61,037 nucleotides of DNA from Girardia tigrina (lineage: Eukaryota). How positions within the stretch are numbered: the first letter of the stretch is position 1; every line of letters starts with the position of its first letter. Below the pieces are notes generated by a model, which was given only the letters and a program-made list of their open reading frames with translations, was not told the origin of the DNA and searched no databases. The stretch spans positions 21,296-82,332 of the forward strand of contig MQRK01248113.1 of the NCBI GenBank assembly GCA_001938485.1, in the 5' to 3' direction. Shown here piece after piece: positions 11,796 through 46,053 of this stretch. The position numbers were made by a program, and so were the translations under genes.

Positions 11796-13046
11796 AATAT
11801 AATATAATATAATATAAAACAATTTAAAATCTAAATAAATTAATTTTAATTTCAAAATTAAAAAAATTAAAAATTAAAAATTAAAAATTAAAAATTAAAT
11901 TAAAAAAAAAACAAAATAATTAAAAATTAAAAACTATTTATCATTTATAATTATAAAACTTTCATAATAATTAACAGTGGTTTTAATATTTTTAAATAAT
12001 TATTTTATCGAAAATGAAAACTGGTCTCGAAGTCCCAATAACATCATACTATAAAGCATAAAATTTCAATAAAACAAGGAACAATAACAATATTTTTGAA
12101 TAATTAAAATGTTATCCGTCTATAAAAAATAAATAAAAATAGGAACTGAAAGAGATCAATAAACTATTATAAATATAATTAATGAATTTTACTTTCCCAT
12201 ATTTTATTGTTTCTCATTTAACCAAAAAATATCTACTCTAATTTTAACATAATTAAAAAAATTAAATTTCTTAATTTAATAATAATAAATAAGAATAAAT
12301 TTTCGATACTGTTAGTGTTGTATTCGCGTCATCCTTTTGAAGAATTAATAAATACGGTCGAATTGATTAAAAAAACTCATATTGCAAGAGATAAAAATTT
12401 TTATCAGGGGTATTAAGAACACTAATATGATTTTTAATATTTTTATTAATATTACAAATTTGATTGTCCTGAAGACAATCTCCGTTAAAACTTTTGTACG
12501 ATTACATCTGTCGAATTAACTAATGACTTTAATCTTATTATCTGAATAAATGAAGATTACTTGAATTGTTAAAATATTTCTTTGAAATATAATTCGTTAA
12601 AAATTAAACTGAATATTAATTACTCAAAAATATTAATTCAATTCATTTATTTAAAAATTGTAAATTAAATTGATAAAATTATTTAAAATTTTATAAATAT
12701 TTTAAATTAGAAATAAATTTTTAACAGAAAATATTTTCATATAATAATAATAATTAAAATATTAATCAGCCATCTGAGTAGGAGTGACATGATTCCAAAT
12801 CAGTATAAAAACACTCAAAAAACATCAAACATTCAAAATATTCCTTACAAGAGGGAAAAATTTCAAAATTATCTGCTATAAATTTTAAAATTATGGGGAG
12901 AGAGGGGTGGGAAGTGTTATATTTAAGATCTTAAGTTTTTCCTCAATATAACACTTTACAAGTGTTTTAAAAGTTTTTGAAAGTTCATAAATGATGCCTT
13001 GATTTAACAGTGGATAGCTGCATTATTTTCCTTGCTTCTGATGATT

Positions 13047-14330
13047 TGTTTTAGAAAATTCTTTCCCCGCAATTCGTTCCTAGGAACATTTGTTTTCAAC
13101 AAATTGTCCCTGACATAATTTGTTTTTTCTTATTAATGCAAAAAGACTATTGTAAAACCTTTATAGATAAATACAAATGACATCATAATTAACAAAAAAA
13201 CTAATTAAAAGTCAAATTTTCTATCATGTTTATACATTTTCAAAGTCAAACGTTAATTATATACACAATATATCAGTGTGTAAATGTCATTTGTTTTGCA
13301 ATGGATACGTTTAAATTTAACATGAGTGAACAAATATTTTAAAAATTTGCAACTCCTCACTCTGATATTGGTATTATCAAAGTGTGAACAGTTAAGTGGC
13401 TGCGACAATGTAGCGTCGGTAGGGTCTCCTTGTGTAGTGGGGGATGACTATTTTTATCTCCCCGTAACTCATCCCAATCTTGATCGTCACCTTAGCAAAT
13501 GACCTGCCCTCGTTAGTCTTATTGCCTCCTCTGCCGATGATATTCATGATGAGATCATTTAGAATCATCATCGCGATGCAATTTGAAGCAATATTGTCCT
13601 ATCATTATAAAAATTATTCATTTTGTTTTCGACTCCAATTCATTTTCGATCAAGTAATCATTGATATTCGTTAAATAATCGATATTCATGAACTCGCCAT
13701 GATTGTCAAACCGACTCAACAACCAGATCGGTAATCCATTTTCGCTATACTCACTGAAATGAGACCGAATCGCGTTTCGTCTTTCGATAATCATTTTCAA
13801 AAATGATTTTTGAGATCCTTCTGTGTCGATTTCCGAATATTTTGGCCATATTAGCGGATTTTTGGCGAGGTAGTCGTAATCGACTGATTCGGTTTCGATT
13901 TTTTGGATTGAAATATCCATCGGTTCCGATTCCGGTCCTTCGATCACCGCAATCGGCTTCAATCTCGTCATAATGTGTTTTAATTCTTTCACTGCGTCTC
14001 TATTGGCGAGATTCGCATTCTCTGGCGCTTTTGGAGCGGCTCGTTTCCTTGTCGTAACACCGGAGAATATTTTTCGATCGGAATTTTCATCCAATGGATT
14101 TATTTTCCGATTTCTCAAAACCATCGGTCGGAGATTCATTTTTATCACCGTTCAGAAAAGCAGAATTTAATTTTCTTTTCAAATTAAATATATTTAATAT
14201 ATTTCTATAATAATTAAAAAATCGATGTCGCTATCAAACTTTATTTAGTTCTCAATACTCACAATAACTAATTCGTTTAAACAAAACGAATTTTTGGCAA
14301 TAAATTTTCTAACTCTAACTCTACATATTT

Positions 14331-14365
<35 letters not shown>

Positions 14366-14521
14366 ATTATAGATATTGGATTAATATTTTTTTTATTAAA
14401 CATTTTTTTTAATTCATTCTGAAACACATTTTAATCAATAAATTTGTCACAATAGTCTTTTTTTATATCTGGGACGATTTGCAGAGAACTAATTTTCCCA
14501 GGTTCGAATTTCAATGATCCC
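13047..14521. mobile_element. MULE/foldback-like non-autonomous element (Pack-MULE-like) with ~100-130-bp imperfect TIRs
   Basis: 13070-13170 aligns to the reverse complement of 14430-14515 (AATTCG..CCT.GGAA.ATT.GTT.TC..CAAAT.GTCCC.GA.ATAA ... AAAAAGACTATTGT); ends in GATCCC like the 5490-5897 element; CTGATG occurs in both flanks. Confidence 0.6.
13618..14148 (-). CDS. Truncated mitotic cyclin (A/B-type) N-terminal fragment, no cyclin box
   Basis: 176-codon open, GC/CpG-richer ORF with a D-box-like RAAPKAPEN, the cyclin A-like PMDIS motif and a pre-cyclin-box helix DYLTNINDYLIENE; stops before any MRAIL motif. Confidence 0.6.
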   Translation of the reverse strand: MIKMNLRPMVLRNRKINPLDENSDRKIFSGVTTRKRAAPKAPENANLANRDAVKELKHIMTRLKPIAVIEGPESEPMDISIQKIETESVDYDYLAKNPLIWPKYSEIDTEGSQKSFLKMIIERRNAIRSHFSEYSENGLPIWLLSRFDNHGEFMNIDYLTNINDYLIENELESKTK

Positions 14522-15865
14522 CTGATGTAGGTTAAACCTTCGGAATGTTGTTATTTAAAATGAAAATAATACATCCTTCAAACGGAAATACATCGAACAA
14601 AATTTACAAAGAGAAACTTATAAATTATAAAAGAAAAAACTAAATCATTTTTTGAAAGAAAGTAATAATAGTTTTATATAATATGATTTGCAAATAAAAT
14701 GAAGACTTGAACAAGAATTTATAATTTTTTAATGGCAGCCGTTTCTGCTAGAAACTATCTATAAAATAATTTTTATGTGTTATCAGAAATTTTGTTTTAA
14801 ATAATTCCAATTTTACTTTGAATTAAAATAATTATAAATATTTTAAATTATTAAATTACTCAATCTTAGTACTAAATGTTTTTGTTATGTGTAGATGAAT
14901 ATGAAAAGAACATATGAAAAGAAGATATGAAAAGAATTCCGAAGATTGTTTAAAGCAAAGTACAAAATGTTTAAGGAAATAGATGAGTTTACATTTGATA
15001 TTGGTTAGGATTTCTGATGAGTTCATAAAATATTTGAATTTAAGATTTACATAAAAATAAGATTTACATAATTAAAAAAATTAATTAAAGTTAAGATAAA
15101 TTTTGTGATAGGTTATTAAAATTAAAGATAATAAATAATAATAAAAAATTACTATAAAGTTAATAAAGTAAATTTTAATTTTGGATTCGAATATAAAACT
15201 TAATATTTAAATTTGAAGTAACAATATAAAAATTAAAATTATGTCGTAACCTAATTTTGTCCGAATATAAATAAATTAAATGAGGTGTGAATTAATCAAA
15301 TTAAAATTGTAATTTAATTTTATTTGAAAACAAAATTAAAATTAAAGTTGGAATATAATTTTATTTAAATACAAAAATTTAATTGAAATATTATAACAAA
15401 TCCGAATATAAATTAATATTTAAATTAGGATGAACCACTGAAGTGTTATTTCGAAAATTATAATAAATATTAAAATAAGAGACATAATAAAATATTTGGG
15501 ACAAAAATTTTTAATAAAATTCATTTTTAATGTTTTAATAAAATACAATTATAAAAGTAAATTCTTAGTAAATGAGATATTAATATCTGAATTTATATTT
15601 ATTTTCATTTATAATGTTTTGTATAAAAAGTAAGTAACTAGGTTCCTCGAAATATTTGTTTAAAAAATTGTTATTGTTATATTAATAAAATTTTGGTATT
15701 ATGAGCATAACTTCTGAATTCAAACCTAATAATATTAATTTGATAAATTAATAAAATTAATTGACAAAAAAGGATTTTCAAAGGATTTATCAATCAATTT
15801 AAACTAAAAAGAAATTAATATGTATTTATTATATTTTTAATTTTACATTTAAAATCCTCACTCAC

Positions 15866-22717: not shown

Positions 22718-23857
22718 CAGGGTGATCATAAAGTAACTACCGGGTTTTAAACTGCAAAAACTTTTGAATTATATTGTATTTCTTTTTAATTATAAAGGTG
22801 TCTTGAAGCTTGTTCTTTAAAATTTAATTAAAATTACATTTTTAAATGTATTACTTGTTGTTATTGTTTTAAGTGTAAGATTCAAAATGGATGTAAATCA
22901 GCGTGTAAAAATTGTTATTTTATTTGCGAAGCATGAGTCAGAGACTTTAGTAAGAAGAGAACTTCAACAACTTAAATGGAAAAATATTCCAATCGAAAAA
23001 AGTATTAGAAGCATCTTCAAAAAGTTTGAAGAAACAGGAAGCGTTCTAAATGCCCCAGAATCTGGAACACCACCAATTGATGATGGAAAGAAAAATGAGA
23101 TACCAGAACATTTTAAGCACGAACCCCAGTCTTCTATCAGGAAATCGTTGTCAACTCTGAATCGCTCTTATGGAACTGTTCAAAAAGTATTACGAAACGA
23201 CTTTAAAATGTTCCCCTACAGAATTCAAGCCACGCAACTTTTGTATGAAGAAGATTGCGCTCTTAGACGTGTTACGTATGAAATGTTAATATAATCGATA
23301 CATGCAGATGAAAATTTTCTTAGTAACCTGATATTCTCTGATGAGTCAACTTTCTATCCTAACGGCATTGTAAACAGACATAACCGTCGTATTTGGGGCG
23401 CTAAAACACCAACCGAAACATATCAGAGGTCACAGGTTAGTTAAAAAGTTAGTGTTTGGATGGGGTTGTCTTCTACTAGTATTTATGGGCCCTTTTTTAT
23501 TGAAGGAAACATAAAAGAGCCGCTTTACCAGTATATATTAAAAAGTTGCTTTATGCCCTCGTTATTATTCAGTGCCCATTATTCAGTGATTGTGCGACAA
23601 TTTCTGGATGAAGCGTTTCCACAACGTTGGCTGGGACGATGTGGTCCATATGTATGACCGGCCAGGTCACCTGATTTGATACCACTCGATTTTTTTGTGT
23701 AGGGATATTTGAAGAATGAAGTGCATAATAGAAAACCAGAAACAATTCAGCAATTTAAAGATTGTATTTGTAAAGAAGCGGCAAAATAGATGGTGAAATG
23801 TGTCAAAATGCCATTAAGTCTTTTCATGGACGCCTTAAACATTGTATTGATGTCGAT
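22718..23857 (+). mobile_element. Tc1/mariner-superfamily element (rosa/DD41D-like), disrupted, 3' TIR missing
   Basis: TA-CAGGGTGAT left TIR; HTH ORF 22887-23294; IFSDESTF..NG.VNRHN.RIWG; *PARSPDLIPLDFFV*GYLK. Confidence 0.8.
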
Positions 23858-27737: not shown

Positions 27738-28727
27738 TTGGGTTGGCCAAAAAGTCATTGCGTTTTTCAGTACGTCCTAATAAAACGCTTGAAAATATAA
27801 AACGATTTTAAAATTTAAATTCAATTATATATTCGGAAACCTTAATTTTCAGATTATGTTTATACAAAATATTAATTGATTTTGTTTTAATTTATTACTT
27901 TACCATCAATTCGAAATGGAAAATCAAAATGAGCATATTCGTCATGTTTTGTCGCATTATTTTCGCAAAGGGAAAACCGCTGTGCAAGCTCAAAGGAAGA
28001 TATGTTTTGTATATGGTAGTGACTCCTTAAAACTTCGACAGTGTCAATACTGGTTTTCTAAATTTCGTTCTGAAAAATTTCATCTGAAAGATGCACCACG
28101 CTCCGGTCGACCAGTTGAAGTTGATGGCGACAAAATAACAGCACTGATCAAATCTAATCCACATATGAGGACAAGAGAAGTTGCAGAGACTCTAGAAATA
28201 TCAAAATCAAGTGTTGAAAGTCATTTAAAAAAACTTGGCTTCGTCAGTAAACTCGATATGTGGTTACCACATGAAGTGAAAGGAATTCATTTAATGAAAC
28301 GTATAGACATTTGCGATTCCCTTTTGAAGCGAGAACAAAGTGATCCATTTTTGAAGCGCTTGATTACGGGTGACGAAAAATGGATTGTTTACAACAATGT
28401 GGAACGCCGACGATCATGGACAAAACGTGGTGAGTCTGCCAAAACGATCCCAAAAGCAGAAATTCACCAAAAGAAGGTTATGCTTTCCGTCTGGTGGGAT
28501 ATTAAAGGAATTGTGATTTTTGAACTCCTTCCGAGGAATGAAACCATCAATTCAGGCAGATATTGTGGTCAGATGGAGAAATTGACTCATTCAATTCAAC
28601 AGGAACGTCCTGAATTGGCAAATCGAAAAGGAGTTGCAATTCAGCATGATAATGCAAGACCGCATACAAGTTTGACCACTCGCCAGAAACTCAAGTAAAA
28701 AACGCAATGACCTTTTGGCCAAACTAA
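27738..28727 (+). mobile_element. Mariner (mellifera-like), 3' internal deletion
   Basis: TIRs TTGGGTTGGCCAAAAAGTCATTGCG; the ORF jumps from RQKL directly to the right TIR. Confidence 0.95.
27916..28698 (+). CDS. Truncated mariner transposase (lacks YSPDL and the third Asp)
   Basis: MENQNEHIRH..., WLPHE, TGDEKW, HDNARPH. Confidence 0.9.
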   Translation: MENQNEHIRHVLSHYFRKGKTAVQAQRKICFVYGSDSLKLRQCQYWFSKFRSEKFHLKDAPRSGRPVEVDGDKITALIKSNPHMRTREVAETLEISKSSVESHLKKLGFVSKLDMWLPHEVKGIHLMKRIDICDSLLKREQSDPFLKRLITGDEKWIVYNNVERRRSWTKRGESAKTIPKAEIHQKKVMLSVWWDIKGIVIFELLPRNETINSGRYCGQMEKLTHSIQQERPELANRKGVAIQHDNARPHTSLTTRQKLK

Positions 28728-37100: not shown

Positions 37101-37581
37101 AGTATTAAATTTTAAGACAATATTACAGTAAAAAATTTTAAATATTAAGTAAATTTTAGAAAAAAACATTTATTAAAAATAAGAAAACTTAATTTAAAAA
37201 AGAGCATAAAAATTAAAAAAGTTCTGAAAGTCATATAAAAACAAATAATTTAAAAATAGAAATGTACATAAAATTAAAAGAATTATAAAGTTTTCAATAT
37301 TATCAAAAGGAAAATGAAAATTTCGTTTAAAATGTTTTATAAATAAAATCATTTTTTTGAGTGGATTACATGTTGTGCTAAGAGGTTATTATGAAGTGGC
37401 AATGCATTTTCAATCTTCTTTTTCCATTCTTTTTATTAGCTTACTTTATATATATATATATNNNNNNNNNNNNNNNNNNNNNNNNNNNNNNNNNNNNNNN
37501 NNNNNNNNNNNNNNNNNNNNNNNNNNNNNNNNNNNNNNNNNNNNNNNNNNNNNNNNNNNNNNNNNNATATATATATATAAG

Positions 37582-40500
37582 GTTATAAGTTAAATACAAA
37601 TAACAATAAAAATTTAGTAAAAGATAATGAAGAAAATAACAAAAAAATTGTGAAAAAATTTAACCAGTTGTTTGAATCAACTGAAATTAATTCTCTTTTA
37701 AAAAAAATGAACAAAAATAATTTTCCTCGCGGAAACCCGAAGGGTTTCCGCGCGGCAGGTCCTGAAATAACTGAGCCGGGCCGTGCGGTCTCTAATGAGC
37801 TGCGTATAACTATACAAAATAATGCCAAACATGTAGAAAACTCTAACGATAAAAATAATAATTCTGAAAATAATGAAAATAACACTGAATTATCTAATGA
37901 CGTAATATTATATGAATCTTCTGAGACCGCCGAAACACCTTTAGTTAACCAGAAAGAGGTCATTATCATTCAGGTCATGATAGCGATAACCTCATTCATC
38001 TTGCACCGGCCGCATCTGACTTGACTAAGCCACTATTCTTTCCATCACCAATTCTTGCAGCAGATCATGTCAGTAGAGATAATTTTGAACACGCCTTCGA
38101 ACTGATGCATGACCAAATAAAAAGACAATCTGTTGCAGTTGCCAGCATCGTGATGGCTGAAAAAATAGTAATTACTGATTCCGCAATTAAAACTCTGGAA
38201 AATATTCAGAGACATAAAATTTTATCAACCTTTATAAAAAATATTAACTGTGTTGCGGAGGGGGTAGAAAGAGTAAACAACATCCCACGCTGGTTCTTGG
38301 ACAAACTAAATAGATAGTCTTTTGAATTAGGAATCCCAGCACCACTCTCATTGAAAGAAGCACTCATAACACATGGAGCTCCGACTGTCTTCTCTCCGGA
38401 GAAATTAGAGTACATCTTAGAATCTACATGTGACAGATGTCACAAACAGTGCAATGGCTATGGCATAGCACTCAGGCTACTGTGTGACGAGATCTCGTTG
38501 AAACTTCATGACTCTCTAAAAAAGACAATCACGAAGAAGCCAAAAATAAAATCTATAAAACTTTAAAATTACTAACCAATCTAGATAGCACATTTAGACT
38601 TAGAGATGCTGATGTAAAACTAAAGATTAGGTTACAAAATATTGTCAAAGAACATAAAATCACTTTACCAAACTATGCAATTTTCAAAAGTCTATTTTCA
38701 ATCAATGACATTAAAGTTGCCTCTGAGAACATTATCAAAAAACTGTCAATATTAAAAAATAATAATAGCAATGATGATATAAAGACAAATGATTCTATGT
38801 CTAATGATGCAACCAGATCGGTTCTACCGACTGTTGCTGCAACCAGATTGGTTTTACCTATTGTAGCTGGTAAATGTGACAACGCTGCTACGACTAAGAA
38901 ATCCGGAAGGACCGAGAGTCGTGTAACTGTCGTCGCCAAATTTTCCATTCCGGTTGACCTTGATGATAGTCTTGGACTGTGTCACTGGTCGACCTAACAA
39001 AATAAAACATTGCTAATGACAGTGATAGTGACTTATTCTCGGATGCTTCCTGCGTGTCTTCGAGATTAGTAGCTCCAAAAAATAAAAAATATAAAAAAAT
39101 AACAAAAAAATTTGATGGGATGGCCCTGCAACTTCAACTATTGTTGAAGATGCTGATAGGCCGCCAGATCCGTCATATTGGTTCGACAACGATGATATAA
39201 ATACTTTCTTGGAATACATCAGTATCTCAAAAAAGTCTCGGGTCCTGCTAGACTTTGTTGCAAATAAGTTGTTTCATGGAGAAAACGATTTAAATTCGGT
39301 CTTTACTGGCTTTAATGCAAAAAAGGAGATTTATGTGTAGTTCCAATCAATTACAACAACACACATTGGCTCGCACTGTGCTGCACGCCGGAACACGCGT
39401 ATATGTACAACTCACTGAGTAACTGACCGTGTGAGAAAACAGTCACAACTCTAGTGGCGCCACTCATTACTACCATAAACGAAGTAGTCACAGACAGAAA
39501 AAATAAACCATATAGAGTGTGGCTCCCGCTGAAGTTCCCGAATGTGAGCAGCAGACGAACAATAATGACTGTGGTCCTTTTGTTTGCGGCTTTATAGAAA
39601 ACATAATAAACGAAACAATAAACCCGCACTTTGAAATAAACATAGAAAACATCCGAAAATGTTGTCATCAGCTGCGTCCTCATTTATCGGATCGTGCTGC
39701 GGGAAGAACTGGGGTTGGAGACATTTCAGTCAAAAAGAGACATTTCAGAGATATCTGAAATAAAAGTTTATTGCCCGTTATGTATATCAGACATGCAATG
39801 GATTCTAGTAGTTTTTGATGTTAACAACAAAACTACCATCGTTTATAATGTCATGGAATCCCTAACACTGGAACAAGAACTGGCAATCAAGAGCATCAAT
39901 GATAATCTTCTCTCCTTCTTTCAATTAGGAGATGAAGGTTGGATTTTGAAACAATCCAATGATTTGCCAACTTCACAAAAATTCGCAGAGAGTGGATACT
40001 GGATTGCCAACTCTATATGGCAATTGTATCACAATAACCCCCCCCCAACAATGATGTACGAGAAATAATTTACAACATCACTAAAAAGAAAGTTCAAAAG
40101 AAAATTAGAAGACAAGAAAAAGCAATCCATATTAATAACATAACAAAACCTATAGTCACAAATGAAGAAGGTTTCCGTTATCTCGGAGCAGACTTTACCA
40201 GAACGACAAAATTCACTCCTGAATGTCTATTTCTATAAGCTATTATGGACTTGAAAAAAATAATCAAATCAATATTATTTCCCTGACAGAAAATAGAAGA
40301 GTATAGAATCTTTATACACTCACGATTCACCTTTCATTTTCGAAATCATAATATACTTACGGATTATGACCACCACGAAACAACGAAATCTATCTTTAAA
40401 GGCGGCCTTGGCGTGTAAATTCGTCGTTACTTGAAAAAGATTTATGGAACAGTCCCAAATTTATCCAATGACTACATTTATGCTGACAAGAAAAAGGGTG

Positions 40501-41760
40501 ATTTTGGCGTAGTCTCTACCCGAGATGAATACACAATGCAATCTATAATTCAAGCGTACATGAACATGGTGTGCTCTGACGAAACATCGTGTGATCTCAC
40601 ATTTATCAATTTATTCAATACGCTAGACAGATATCACGGTACTAAAAAAGAATGGACACTCTCTGATTGCCTAAACTGGATCAACACAGGTGGCAAAGAG
40701 AATGGATTTAAATCTTGGGGGACCAAGATTCGGAATTCACTCAAGTACCTGAAAGGCATTGGGTTACAAATTCAGTTCGTCACCCACGAGCTAGGTATTA
40801 GTTTAAAAGTTCACATATCCAATGACTCCATGATACTAAGTGAACATTCAATTGACAATATGACTTTCCACTTGCACAGAATCTATAACAAAATGAAATT
40901 TGACAAATGGAGCAAATAAAGGATTGCTGGAATGTCTGCCATCTTATTTGCAGAACACAACTTCAGCTCCAAAGTACTTTACAACGAGTCACTATCCATC
41001 GAGGAAGGCGCTTTTTACACAGCGCAAGGACTAATAGTTTACCAACCAATTATAAGCCGAAAAAACCAAGGCAACAATCGATGTGCATGGTATGTGGTCA
41101 AGATATAGAAACACAGATGCATGTCCTATGTTGGCGTAAACCCAACAGCACTCTAATACAGGCGAGACATAATGTAATCGCAGAAATCGTCACAGATACA
41201 TTAATTGCAGAGAAACCAATTTTAAAAATCATCATGAATCGAGAGTGTGATTGGTCTGTGTATGGAAGCCGGGTTAATTTACAATTTTATAACCATGGAA
41301 CCAAAGAACTCTGGCTTATAGATATAAAAACCCCTTATGCACAATAAAAGCACTTAAACATGCCAGAAATAACAACAAAAAGAAATATAAAGGTCTGCTA
41401 ACTGAAGCAAAAGCGGCTCATTAAGGGTGGACTGTAATATTAGGAGCAATTGTTGTCGGCTGATTAGGATCTTGGACAGTTGATAATGACAACCTGCTTA
41501 AAAATAAATTACATCTTTCAGGTACAACTATAAAAAAATTAACCAAAATGTTGATAGTGTCGAATATCAAATATTCCATCTCGACGCGGCATAAACACAA
41601 TACCGGTCAATATAACCAACTGATGTCAAATGCGGTGACGACAAATCTTACTGACACAGTCACGGCAGATGCACCATTAATCGGTTAATAACATTAATAT
41701 CAACACAAGTCATAGATGCTCTATACAGCGACCATAGGTTTGAGTATTCAATGTTTATCC
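37582..41760 (+). mobile_element. NeSL-like RLE non-LTR retrotransposon with Ulp1-like protease domains; most of the RT is deleted
   Basis: WFDNDDIN..PINYNNTHW..YNSL..QQTNNNDCGPFV (peptidase C48-like); FRYLG; YIYADKKKGDFGV; CMVCGQDIETQMHVL; RHNVI; LIDIKTPY; K.KY; IVVG*LGSW. Confidence 0.88.
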
Positions 41761-43766: not shown

Positions 43767-46053
43767 CTAAGCTGATTCAAAATATTTTTCGTTTTTCCAC
43801 TCATATTTTAAAAATAACAAATCATGTTAACAGACCACATTTATTCTTCGAAAGCAGACTTTTATTTTCGATGGTCTTCAACCATTTTTCAGCCAGTTGT
43901 TCGATTTAACGAGTATAATACTCTGTCATTTCGGAAGCAAAGAAAATGCGGCACCCTTGTTCAACCTCTTCTATTGAATTGAATTGCCGCCCTTTGAAAA
44001 AAATACGCGATTGTCCGAAAGAGGTGAAAGTCGCTGTGAATAAGGTCGGGGCTGAAGGTAGGGTGTGGCAAAACTTCGATACTATGTAGCTCTTGCACTT
44101 TACCACGAGTCAAATGTCAATCTATATCGTTGTCTTGTTCTAGAAGAACTCTGTTGCAATTGACTAATGTCAAATAACGTTCGCAGAGAATGAGGTAGAC
44201 TCTGTTAGGCTGCTGAGTGTATAGGTTGGCATTCACAGTACATCCCTCCGGAACCAGCTCTTATATATCATCCCATCTAAATTCTACCATACACAGAGCA
44301 TAACTTTGCAATCGAAGCGTCAATGTTTAAAAACGGATTGAGCAAACATACCAGGGTAGAGACACTGCTTCTCTTTGTTGAGATTACGGAAAATTATCAA
44401 CTTTATAACCCCTATCACGATCATTTTGAAGAAGATCAAGTAATGGGGGTGAGAAAGCAATACTTTGCAGAAATCATGTCGTTGTTTTGCTTGAGTGGCT
44501 ATCAGTTCATGAGGAATTTGCCGACACTGTCTATTTACAAGGCCAAGCTGATGAAGATGACGCTGAATAGTGGATTGTGAAGGACCAAGCATGGCTATTC
44601 TTCCACAGCTTGACATAGAGGGTCATCATCAACAACAAATGGTCGTCCAGAGCGAGGTTGATCTTCGAAATTAACGTCACCTCTTGAGAAACACTTGTGA
44701 CCCTCGAACATTGATCCTACCTTCGCCATTTACTTCACCTATATCCCGAGCTGCAGCAGCTGCGTTGAAGCATTTTTCCAGTAATCTCGCAAAAGGAATT
44801 GAATTCCGCATTTTTCGCTCTCCATAATCTGATAAGATGTTTAATGAAATGTTTAAGGCAAATTTTTAATGAAAAATGCTACACTTTACAATGAGATTCG
44901 TATCGAATAATAAATATTGGGTTGGTCAAAAAGTCATTGCGTTTTTCAGTACGTCCTAATAAAAAGCTTGAAAATATAAAACGATTTTAAAATATAAATT
45001 CAATTATATATTCTGAAACCTTAATTTTCAGACTATGTTTATAAAAAATATTAATTGATTTGGTTTCAATTTATTACTTTACCGTCAATTCGAAATGGAA
45101 AATCAAAATGAGCATATTCGTCATGTTTTGTTGCATTATTTTCGCAAAGGGAAAACCACTGTGCAAGCTCATAAGATGATATGTTTTGTATATGGTAGTG
45201 ACTCCTTAAAACGTCGACAGTGTCAATACTGGTTTTCTAAATTTCGTTCTGAAAAATTTTATCTGAAAGATGCACCACGCTCCGGTCGACCAGTTGAAGT
45301 TGATGGTGACAAAATAGCAGCACTGATCAAATCAAATCCACATATGAAAACAAGAGAAATTGCAGAGACTCTAGAAATATCAAAATCAAGTGTTGGAAGT
45401 CATTTAAAGAAACTTGAATTCGTCAGTAAACTCGATATGTGGTTACCACATGAACTGAAAGAAATTCATTTAGTGAAACGTATAGACATTTGCGATTCCC
45501 TTTTGAAGCGAGAACAAAGTGATCCATTTTTGAAGCGCTTGATTACGGGTGACGAAAAATGGATTGTTCACAACCATGTGAAACGCCGACGATCATGGAC
45601 AAACCAGAAACTCTTATCACTGGGTTGGGAGGTTTTGCCGCACCCACCATATTCTCCAGACTTGACCCCATCGGATTTTCACTTATTTAGATCACTGCAG
45701 AATTCCTTAAACAGAAAAACATTCGCCAGTGATGATGACATCAAATCGTTCCAAGACGGCTTTTTTTGCTGACAAAGGCAAAGGTTTTTATGAATCAGGA
45801 ATAATGAAGCTACCGGAAAGGTGGAAGAAAGTGATTGAAAATAATGGACAGTATATCGTATAAAAATATTTGTGCATCCATGTCATTTTTTGATAATAAA
45901 TATTTTAGTAAAAAACGCAATGACTTTTTGGCCAACCCAATAATTTAATATTAAATAATTTGAACATCAATAATGCAAAAAAATAATATTTATATAGAAT
46001 AACTGACACAGTGTAATGCATAGAAAAACGAAAAAACCCTTAAATCACCCTAG
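43767..46053 (-). mobile_element. Degenerate mariner containing a nested mariner
   Basis: TIRs CTAAGCTGATTCAAAA..TTTTCGTTTTTC / reverse complement at 46021-46053, TA TSD; transposase remnants EDQPRSGRP, QIPHEL, GRQFNSIEEV. Confidence 0.85.
44917..45940 (+). mobile_element. Mariner (same family as 27738-28727), in-frame central deletion
   Basis: Near-perfect TIRs, TA TSD; ORF 45095-45772 joins RRRSWT to QKLLSLGWEVLPHPPYSPDL. Confidence 0.95.

Follow-up and report, generated by a model that had tools for sequence, protein, structure and literature searches.

The 61,037-nucleotide stretch of Girardia tigrina DNA analysed here (the window) probably holds a young solo long terminal repeat (LTR) of a Bel/Pao retrotransposon that carries the spliced 5' end of a host cyclin mRNA, likely captured by template switching and probably maintained as a swappable beginning, in frame, of a ubiquitin-Gag polyprotein, not as a functional cyclin peptide. 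Of the structural part of this account, namely the vehicle, the donor and the splicing of the cargo, we are highly confident; towards its polyprotein part we lean only slightly. The features on which the argument is built are the following.

13071..13168, plus strand: left arm of an older inverted repeat, the end of a dispersed repeat family (from arm pairing).
13363..13610, minus strand: older, decayed KH-domain-like fragment, a separate dispersed repeat (39 other matches at 71-80% among the best 40 of 113 candidates).
13619..13623, minus strand: downstream copy of the 5-bp target site duplication (TSD), AAATG on the minus strand (from the sequence).
13621..14139, minus strand: ORF P0001, 173 codons, 172 of them in the LTR and one from the TSD, the stop then lying in the flank (open reading frame).
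13624..14426, minus strand: Bel/Pao solo LTR of 803 bp (genomic copies with the same ends; neighbouring polypurine tracts, or PPTs, and primer sites in other copies).
13626..14187, minus strand: captured 5' part of a spliced cyclin mRNA (5' UTR, exons 1-2 and the start of exon 3), probably in the U5 position (comparison with the donor, L136/L137/L138).
14217..14426, minus strand: LTR portion common to the whole family, about 210 bp, probably U3/R (about 70-78% identity to LTRs with other cargo).
14427..14431, minus strand: upstream copy of the 5-bp TSD, AAATG on the minus strand (from the sequence).
14434..14510, minus strand: right arm of the older inverted repeat, at whose inner edge the LTR is inserted (from arm pairing).

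Among the best 40 of 997 candidates from a search of the window's own genome with 13030-14540, non-self matches span only about 13604-14465 and nearly all cover 13624-14426; almost all end at 13624 and many at 14426. Read on the minus strand, this interval starts with TGTTTC and ends with GAAAACA, making it an LTR of the TG..CA type. Within an older inverted-repeat stretch, the cyclin ORF and the sequence upstream of it form a younger unit of their own, 803 bp long. The ORF, uninterrupted as the earlier note had it, runs for 177 codons from stop to stop, or 173 from the ATG at 14139, and fills most of the 803-bp LTR. With the window LTR being 98% identical to its nearest copies, the frame is still open because the solo LTR is young, and not despite old terminal inverted repeats (TIRs), as had been supposed. 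P0001 alone matched no Pfam family and had no longer homologue among 417 candidates, its atlas matches being unnamed clusters only, of low recognition; the donor exon likewise had no longer homologue among 386 candidates. The family-wide part of the LTR holds a (TA)n(TG)n run, a hairpin at about 14271-14291 and an AATAAA at 14240-14245, and terminates at ATCGATTTTT. This AATAAA, together with the end of the shared part, places the cyclin cargo in what would be U5.

Judged from shared ends, TSDs, PPT and primer-site junctions and the protein domains of related loci, the cyclin piece is carried by a Bel/Pao solo LTR. Perfect 5-bp TSDs, different from each other, flank seven of the ten solo copies with both ends, and L011 additionally. 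At least 91 cyclin-type LTR ends occur in the genome, counted as exact matches to the last 18 bases; a PPT precedes the 3' LTR at 43 junctions, all cargo types taken together, and the primer site lies downstream of 5' LTRs at 15 exact junctions. In L091 a cyclin-type 3' LTR (93%) stands behind integrase and DUF5641, with Pfam returning Integrase_H2C2 and rve, both under the curated cut-off, as well as DUF5641. In L141 a cyclin-type 5' LTR precedes a ubiquitin domain, and L176, with different cargo, reads ubiquitin, DUF1759, RVT_1 and Peptidase_A17 in this order; Pfam made no call for an element protease. Two LTRs 92% alike lie 6950 bp apart in L100, with gag-pol between them. The primer site may match initiator Met tRNA; a tRNA-like half whose loop reads CAT (L225) contains its complement, and ARAGORN and Rfam called no tRNA in five of five loci. 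Some LTRs (L011, L058, L194-L196 and L214) end in TA instead of CA, which in the cyclin type is the donor's own letter; L011 has this TA end and yet a perfect TSD. Two family LTRs in the same orientation in L097 (G000:C236954), about 7.9 kb apart and with different cargo, are 74% alike over their first 200 bp only, and represent either one element with a fresh cargo swap or two neighbouring elements. L058, L067 and L082/L093, in which one LTR is preceded by a PPT and followed by a primer site, or internal sequence lies directly behind the LTR start, point to tandem or rearranged elements.

The inverted arms, from which the earlier note had concluded that a Pack-MULE-like DNA transposon carried the fragment, are real. 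As can be seen from their alignment, 13071-13118 and 14463-14510 are identical at 37 of 48 positions, and the shared AAAAAGACTATTGT block pairs at 14 of 14 (13140-13168 with 14434-14462). Their local score of 91, which includes an AT-rich extension, compares with 35.6 +/- 14.3 for 1000 random window pairs, four of which score as high. The CTGATG taken for part of a decayed TSD is indeed present on both sides, but a TSD of about 9 bp is unsupported: 40 x 30 boundary pairs yielded no 8-, 9- or 10-mer with at most one mismatch, and the only two 7-mers at the arm boundaries are, by rough estimate, at chance level. Pack-MULE TSDs measure 8-11 bp. An exact 26-mer of the arm recurs at eight loci, and a partner arm is absent from all six of these read over 4-10 kb, on contigs that are short. 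The arms did not carry the cyclin. Next to the LTR lies the KH-like fragment, of which a homologous frame in L032 matches KH_1 (E 4.6e-4, just under the curated cut-off) and which occurs at other loci without these arms; an assignment of 13392-13620 to a FLYWCH/Mutator transposase remnant was dropped, the sequence being KH-like instead. Among the loci with this repeat (L017-L035), the upstream part of L019, L020 and L025 resembles by eye a mitochondrial-carrier fragment, so that the repeat may be another chimeric gene-fragment family. Elsewhere in the window, on the plus strand, 22821-23291, 27880-28695 and 45059-45769 look by eye like pieces of Tc1/mariner transposase ORFs, the last two near-identical, and 37581-41344 holds GC-richer ORF pieces with the look of a decayed non-LTR retroelement.

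The source of the cargo is, on sequence comparison, an A/B-type cyclin gene of the same genome. A Cyclin_N scan of the genome returned a paralogue at 69% identity and led on to the donor, present with identical matches on three contigs (L136/L137/L138); the 69% paralogue itself (L051/L086), at one point considered the donor, was superseded by the closer L133-L138. Donor exon 3 is 93.4% identical to the window LTR over 274 nt and then runs on into a cyclin box (Cyclin_N, E 1.4e-8) that is missing from the window ORF, in line with the earlier reading of this ORF as an A/B-type cyclin fragment from the 5' side that stops short of the box. The donor exon matches cyclin B1 and cyclin A2 chains with close scores (27.3 and 24.5 bits, respectively). 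The donor 5' UTR and exons 1-2 correspond to LTR positions 240-525, and both donor introns, of 55 nt and 3132 nt, which show GT..AG splicing in contigs from one sample, are precisely missing from the LTR. That a transposon had captured a cyclin fragment is thus borne out, by spliced cargo inside an LTR with its own TSD. The closest LTR examined is 96-97.5% identical to donor exons 2 and 3, pointing to recent capture. At the cut point the donor reads AAAATATTGG and the element AAAA[C/T]A at the LTR end followed by TTGG of the primer site. Donor and element agree here in nine of ten bases, and in ten of ten in L058; the donor T at the junction is retained in L058 and in one run contig. At the 5' junction the likeness is weak, and both comparisons are for the cyclin donor only. 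A deep contig from run X2 over L136 5947-6017 joins LTR-type 5' sequence to donor-type exons continuing into the cyclin box; it is most likely an assembly chimera and may otherwise be an LTR-driven full cyclin transcript. A trans-spliced leader common to donor mRNA and LTR was considered and rejected: the 76-nt 5' piece on the run contig is LTR-type, as are ten of the ten examined among its 24 exact genomic matches. The same genome holds an expanded, divergent family of cyclin-box genes (72 Cyclin_N candidates, such as L036, L037, L040-L042 and L050), several with stops.

Sister LTRs have about 210 bp in common with the window LTR and then diverge into the fronts of other genes. Pfam identifies Pro_isomerase (cyclophilin), Tubulin (just under cut-off), Striatin and Histone among this other cargo, alongside further pieces, and judged by eye the cargo is frequently chimeric. 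The 35 primer-site junctions present four main LTR-end tails, each in the primer-site frame, and one stray. At 18 of the 19 5' junctions the longest upstream open frame is the primer-site frame, with a tie at the remaining one; in the two alternative frames a stop follows within 1 and 4-29 codons. When the donor of the DWTKT tail was sought, all hits examined (27 of 28 loci) were copies of the element. Two linker types follow the primer site, each closing in a divergent ubiquitin with Gly-Gly before Gag (L176:637-1740, plus strand; L141:1-318, minus strand; L100, L169, L172-L175 and L177), and the ubiquitin domain with its terminal Gly-Gly directly adjoins Gag. In one natural copy, L212, a stretch of 391 stop-free codons starts in striatin cargo, crosses the primer site and ubiquitin and reaches the first Gag residues; L212 is without part of the linker present in L176 and meets a stop soon after ubiquitin. 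The AT-rich linker (80-90% AT), which ends in a second Gly-Gly motif at a G run, is open for longer than shuffled sequence (P<=0.022) in eight of 15 testable loci and not in the other seven, the copies being related; an intron in its place was rejected by eye, as no convincing acceptor was seen. No cyclin-type copy was seen to run in one frame from cargo to Gag: the frame shifts 1-3 times in most 5' copies, at runs of A, T or G that differ from copy to copy, and the ubiquitin frame relative to the LTR end varies among copies. A protein search for relatives of the ubiquitin-Gag arrangement found none among 21 matches, which is weak evidence.

The cyclin piece itself bears no sign of amino-acid constraint. 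In 29 well-aligned copies, changes shared between copies (60 nonsynonymous or stop, 22 synonymous) do not differ in kind from private ones (107 and 51; Fisher p=0.46). Seven of the 36 copies, whose 5' parts are deleted or replaced, are left out of this test; with their exon 3 included the outcome is the same (p=0.36). A raw dN/dS of 0.51 against the donor, at one stage read as purifying selection, was discounted, private changes giving the same or a lower ratio (about 0.56, versus 0.72 for shared changes). At the D-box site (14017-14043) the donor reads RAALKALEN, which fits RxxLxxxxN, whereas the window copy reads RAAPKAPEN, which does not. Twenty of the 29 well-aligned copies are without stop or frameshift, in a sample that favours the best matches. 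With no purifying selection on the peptide and a broken D-box in the window copy, it seems to be the frame and not the peptide that is kept. LTR-type contigs of low depth occur in RNA-labelled runs of one sample and could derive from DNA; such runs gave no contigs over the flanks of the window locus, which is uninformative.

These observations are consistent with the following mechanism. Host mRNA is likely picked up by template switching in first-strand synthesis: the polymerase, primed at the primer site, would slip within a few bases onto a co-packaged host mRNA, copy it to its 5' UTR and rejoin the element near R. The captured segment would sit in U5, which is single in element RNA, and could therefore be replaced without breaking strand transfer. 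The cargo would then supply the start of the element polyprotein, and in-frame captures would spread because only those that keep the frame could still make Gag-Pol. Cleavage by deubiquitinases after Gly-Gly is well established, and host deubiquitinases cutting at this position would free Gag whatever lies ahead of it. Recombination between LTRs would finally leave many solo LTRs, each an intronless gene-front ORF.

A rival reading accepts the same solo LTR and RNA capture and regards the cargo as a passenger upstream ORF, with Gag starting at its own internal Met and the common frame reflecting only the avoidance of early stops or a small number of founders. The absence of any cyclin-to-Gag copy fully in frame, the lack of constraint on the cargo and the fact that there are just about four independent 3' tails speak for it, as do Met codons between linker and ubiquitin, given which Gag may not need the cargo start. 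Against this, one frame is kept by four tails and by their internal chimeric joints, the frame stays open into ubiquitin or the region ahead of it in L212 and L157, and some 97 AT-rich linker codons stand open ahead of the first Met in L176; we consider a mere passenger unlikely, if to be taken seriously. N-terminal cyclin fragments can compete for APC/C, and the cyclin front might be kept for an effect on the host, either as a D-box peptide of this kind or as RNA silencing the cyclin gene, favouring transposition in dividing cells. Leu at the D-box core in the donor and in 14 of the 26 covered copies, the open frames of most aligned copies and the LTR-type contigs in RNA-labelled runs would fit such a role. 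However, the share of synonymous changes is no higher among shared than among private ones, Pro replaces this Leu in the remaining 12 of 26 copies, including that of the window, and the slot is equally occupied by unrelated genes, so that a host effect appears improbable and the cyclin-box-less regulatory peptide envisaged in the earlier note is disfavoured.

The two remaining alternatives concern the vehicle. Retroposition by a LINE enzyme, with the resulting processed pseudogene landing in an LTR that later multiplied, would explain that the cargo is intronless. It would have to do so without a poly(A), with a 3' truncation exactly at the LTR end, at a cut point resembling the primer site and with unrelated genes repeatedly filling the same slot, and none of the copies read shows a TSD or A-tail around the cargo; we rate it as very improbable. 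Even less credible, and refuted as far as the cyclin is concerned, is the original proposal of a DNA transposon that picked up the cyclin fragment and has the arms as its TIRs. Although the arms belong to a genuine dispersed repeat family, the cyclin unit moves without them, its copies stopping at the LTR ends, having their own 5-bp TSDs and belonging to a Bel/Pao family; the cargo is spliced, an 8-10-bp TSD is lacking, the six other arm loci read over 4-10 kb have no partner arm, and what the arms enclose is at most the older KH-like fragment.

Returning to the solo LTR with captured, in-frame cargo, we put forward, with the scales evenly balanced, a general picture of a Bel/Pao family whose polyprotein start is supplied by the host. 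Host mRNAs would repeatedly refill its LTR slot with their 5' UTR, their start codon and their first 120-180 codons; the ubiquitin joint would make Gag indifferent to the cargo, and solo-LTR formation would act as a genome-wide factory of promoter-bearing, intronless gene-front ORFs, possibly evading sequence-based silencing or borrowing host translational control. Such a family would show concretely by what vehicle and mechanism the fronts of host genes can spread on a large scale through the genome of an animal: with capture inside the LTR, an element that retains gag-pol can transport and exchange its cargo, and wherever a solo LTR remains, so does an open gene fragment behind a promoter. 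Testable now are the origin of new LTRs by primer-site template switching, a modular Gag polyprotein built on the ubiquitin joint, and small RNAs from the cargo directed against donor genes. For annotation the case is a warning, as gene-front ORFs mimic expanded, truncated gene families.

Parts of the arrangement have counterparts in known systems. In yeast Ty1 gag starts inside the 5' LTR, the LTR-encoded start being short and the element's own; here, too, coding would start in the LTR and cross the primer site, but with 120-180 codons of exchangeable host sequence. Pestivirus polyproteins contain captured ubiquitin as a cleavage signal, comparable to the host-cleaved ubiquitin joint that we propose here from sequence. 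Neither host mRNA fronts inside LTRs nor ubiquitin-Gag Bel/Pao elements were found in the literature searched, which mostly excluded subscription papers and Repbase, and a term search of PMC3118150 gave no mention of ubiquitin. Belpaoviridae have LTRs of 0.2-1.2 kb, a PPT of about 10 nt, gag-pol with DUF1759, RT, Pao RNase H/peptidase A17, integrase and DUF5641, and a non-coding stretch after the 5' LTR, with an 18-nt primer site for tRNA-Arg/Gly (PMC8742986). The present family agrees with this description in its 803-bp LTR, PPT, primer site, DUF1759/RVT_1/Peptidase_A17 and integrase with DUF5641, whereas its post-LTR stretch reads in frame, a ubiquitin domain lies ahead of Gag and the primer site may match initiator Met tRNA. 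With Pack-MULEs and animal Pack-TIRs, as far as these are covered in the part of PMC6431247 consulted, it shares the spread of host gene fragments by a transposon, and differs in its RNA-based LTR vehicle, spliced cargo and 5-bp TSD, the TIR-like arms being bystanders. In LTR-mediated retrocopies of animals, yeast (Ty) and maize (Bs1), internal ORFs are partly replaced by the captured copy and the resulting element is non-autonomous, and one mosquito case involves a BEL element (Tan et al. 2016, PMC5131818, in the sections consulted). Partial intronless mRNA pieces, short junction likeness, multi-gene chimeras and further rounds of retroposition are common to these retrocopies, as presented in those sections, and to our family; unlike them, the cargo here resides inside the LTR, is present in both LTRs of gag-pol-bearing elements, persists in solo LTRs and lies in the polyprotein frame. 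LTR-mediated retroposition as such is already known; what appears new, against the literature searched, is that the cargo lies within the LTR and shares the frame of the putative element polyprotein.
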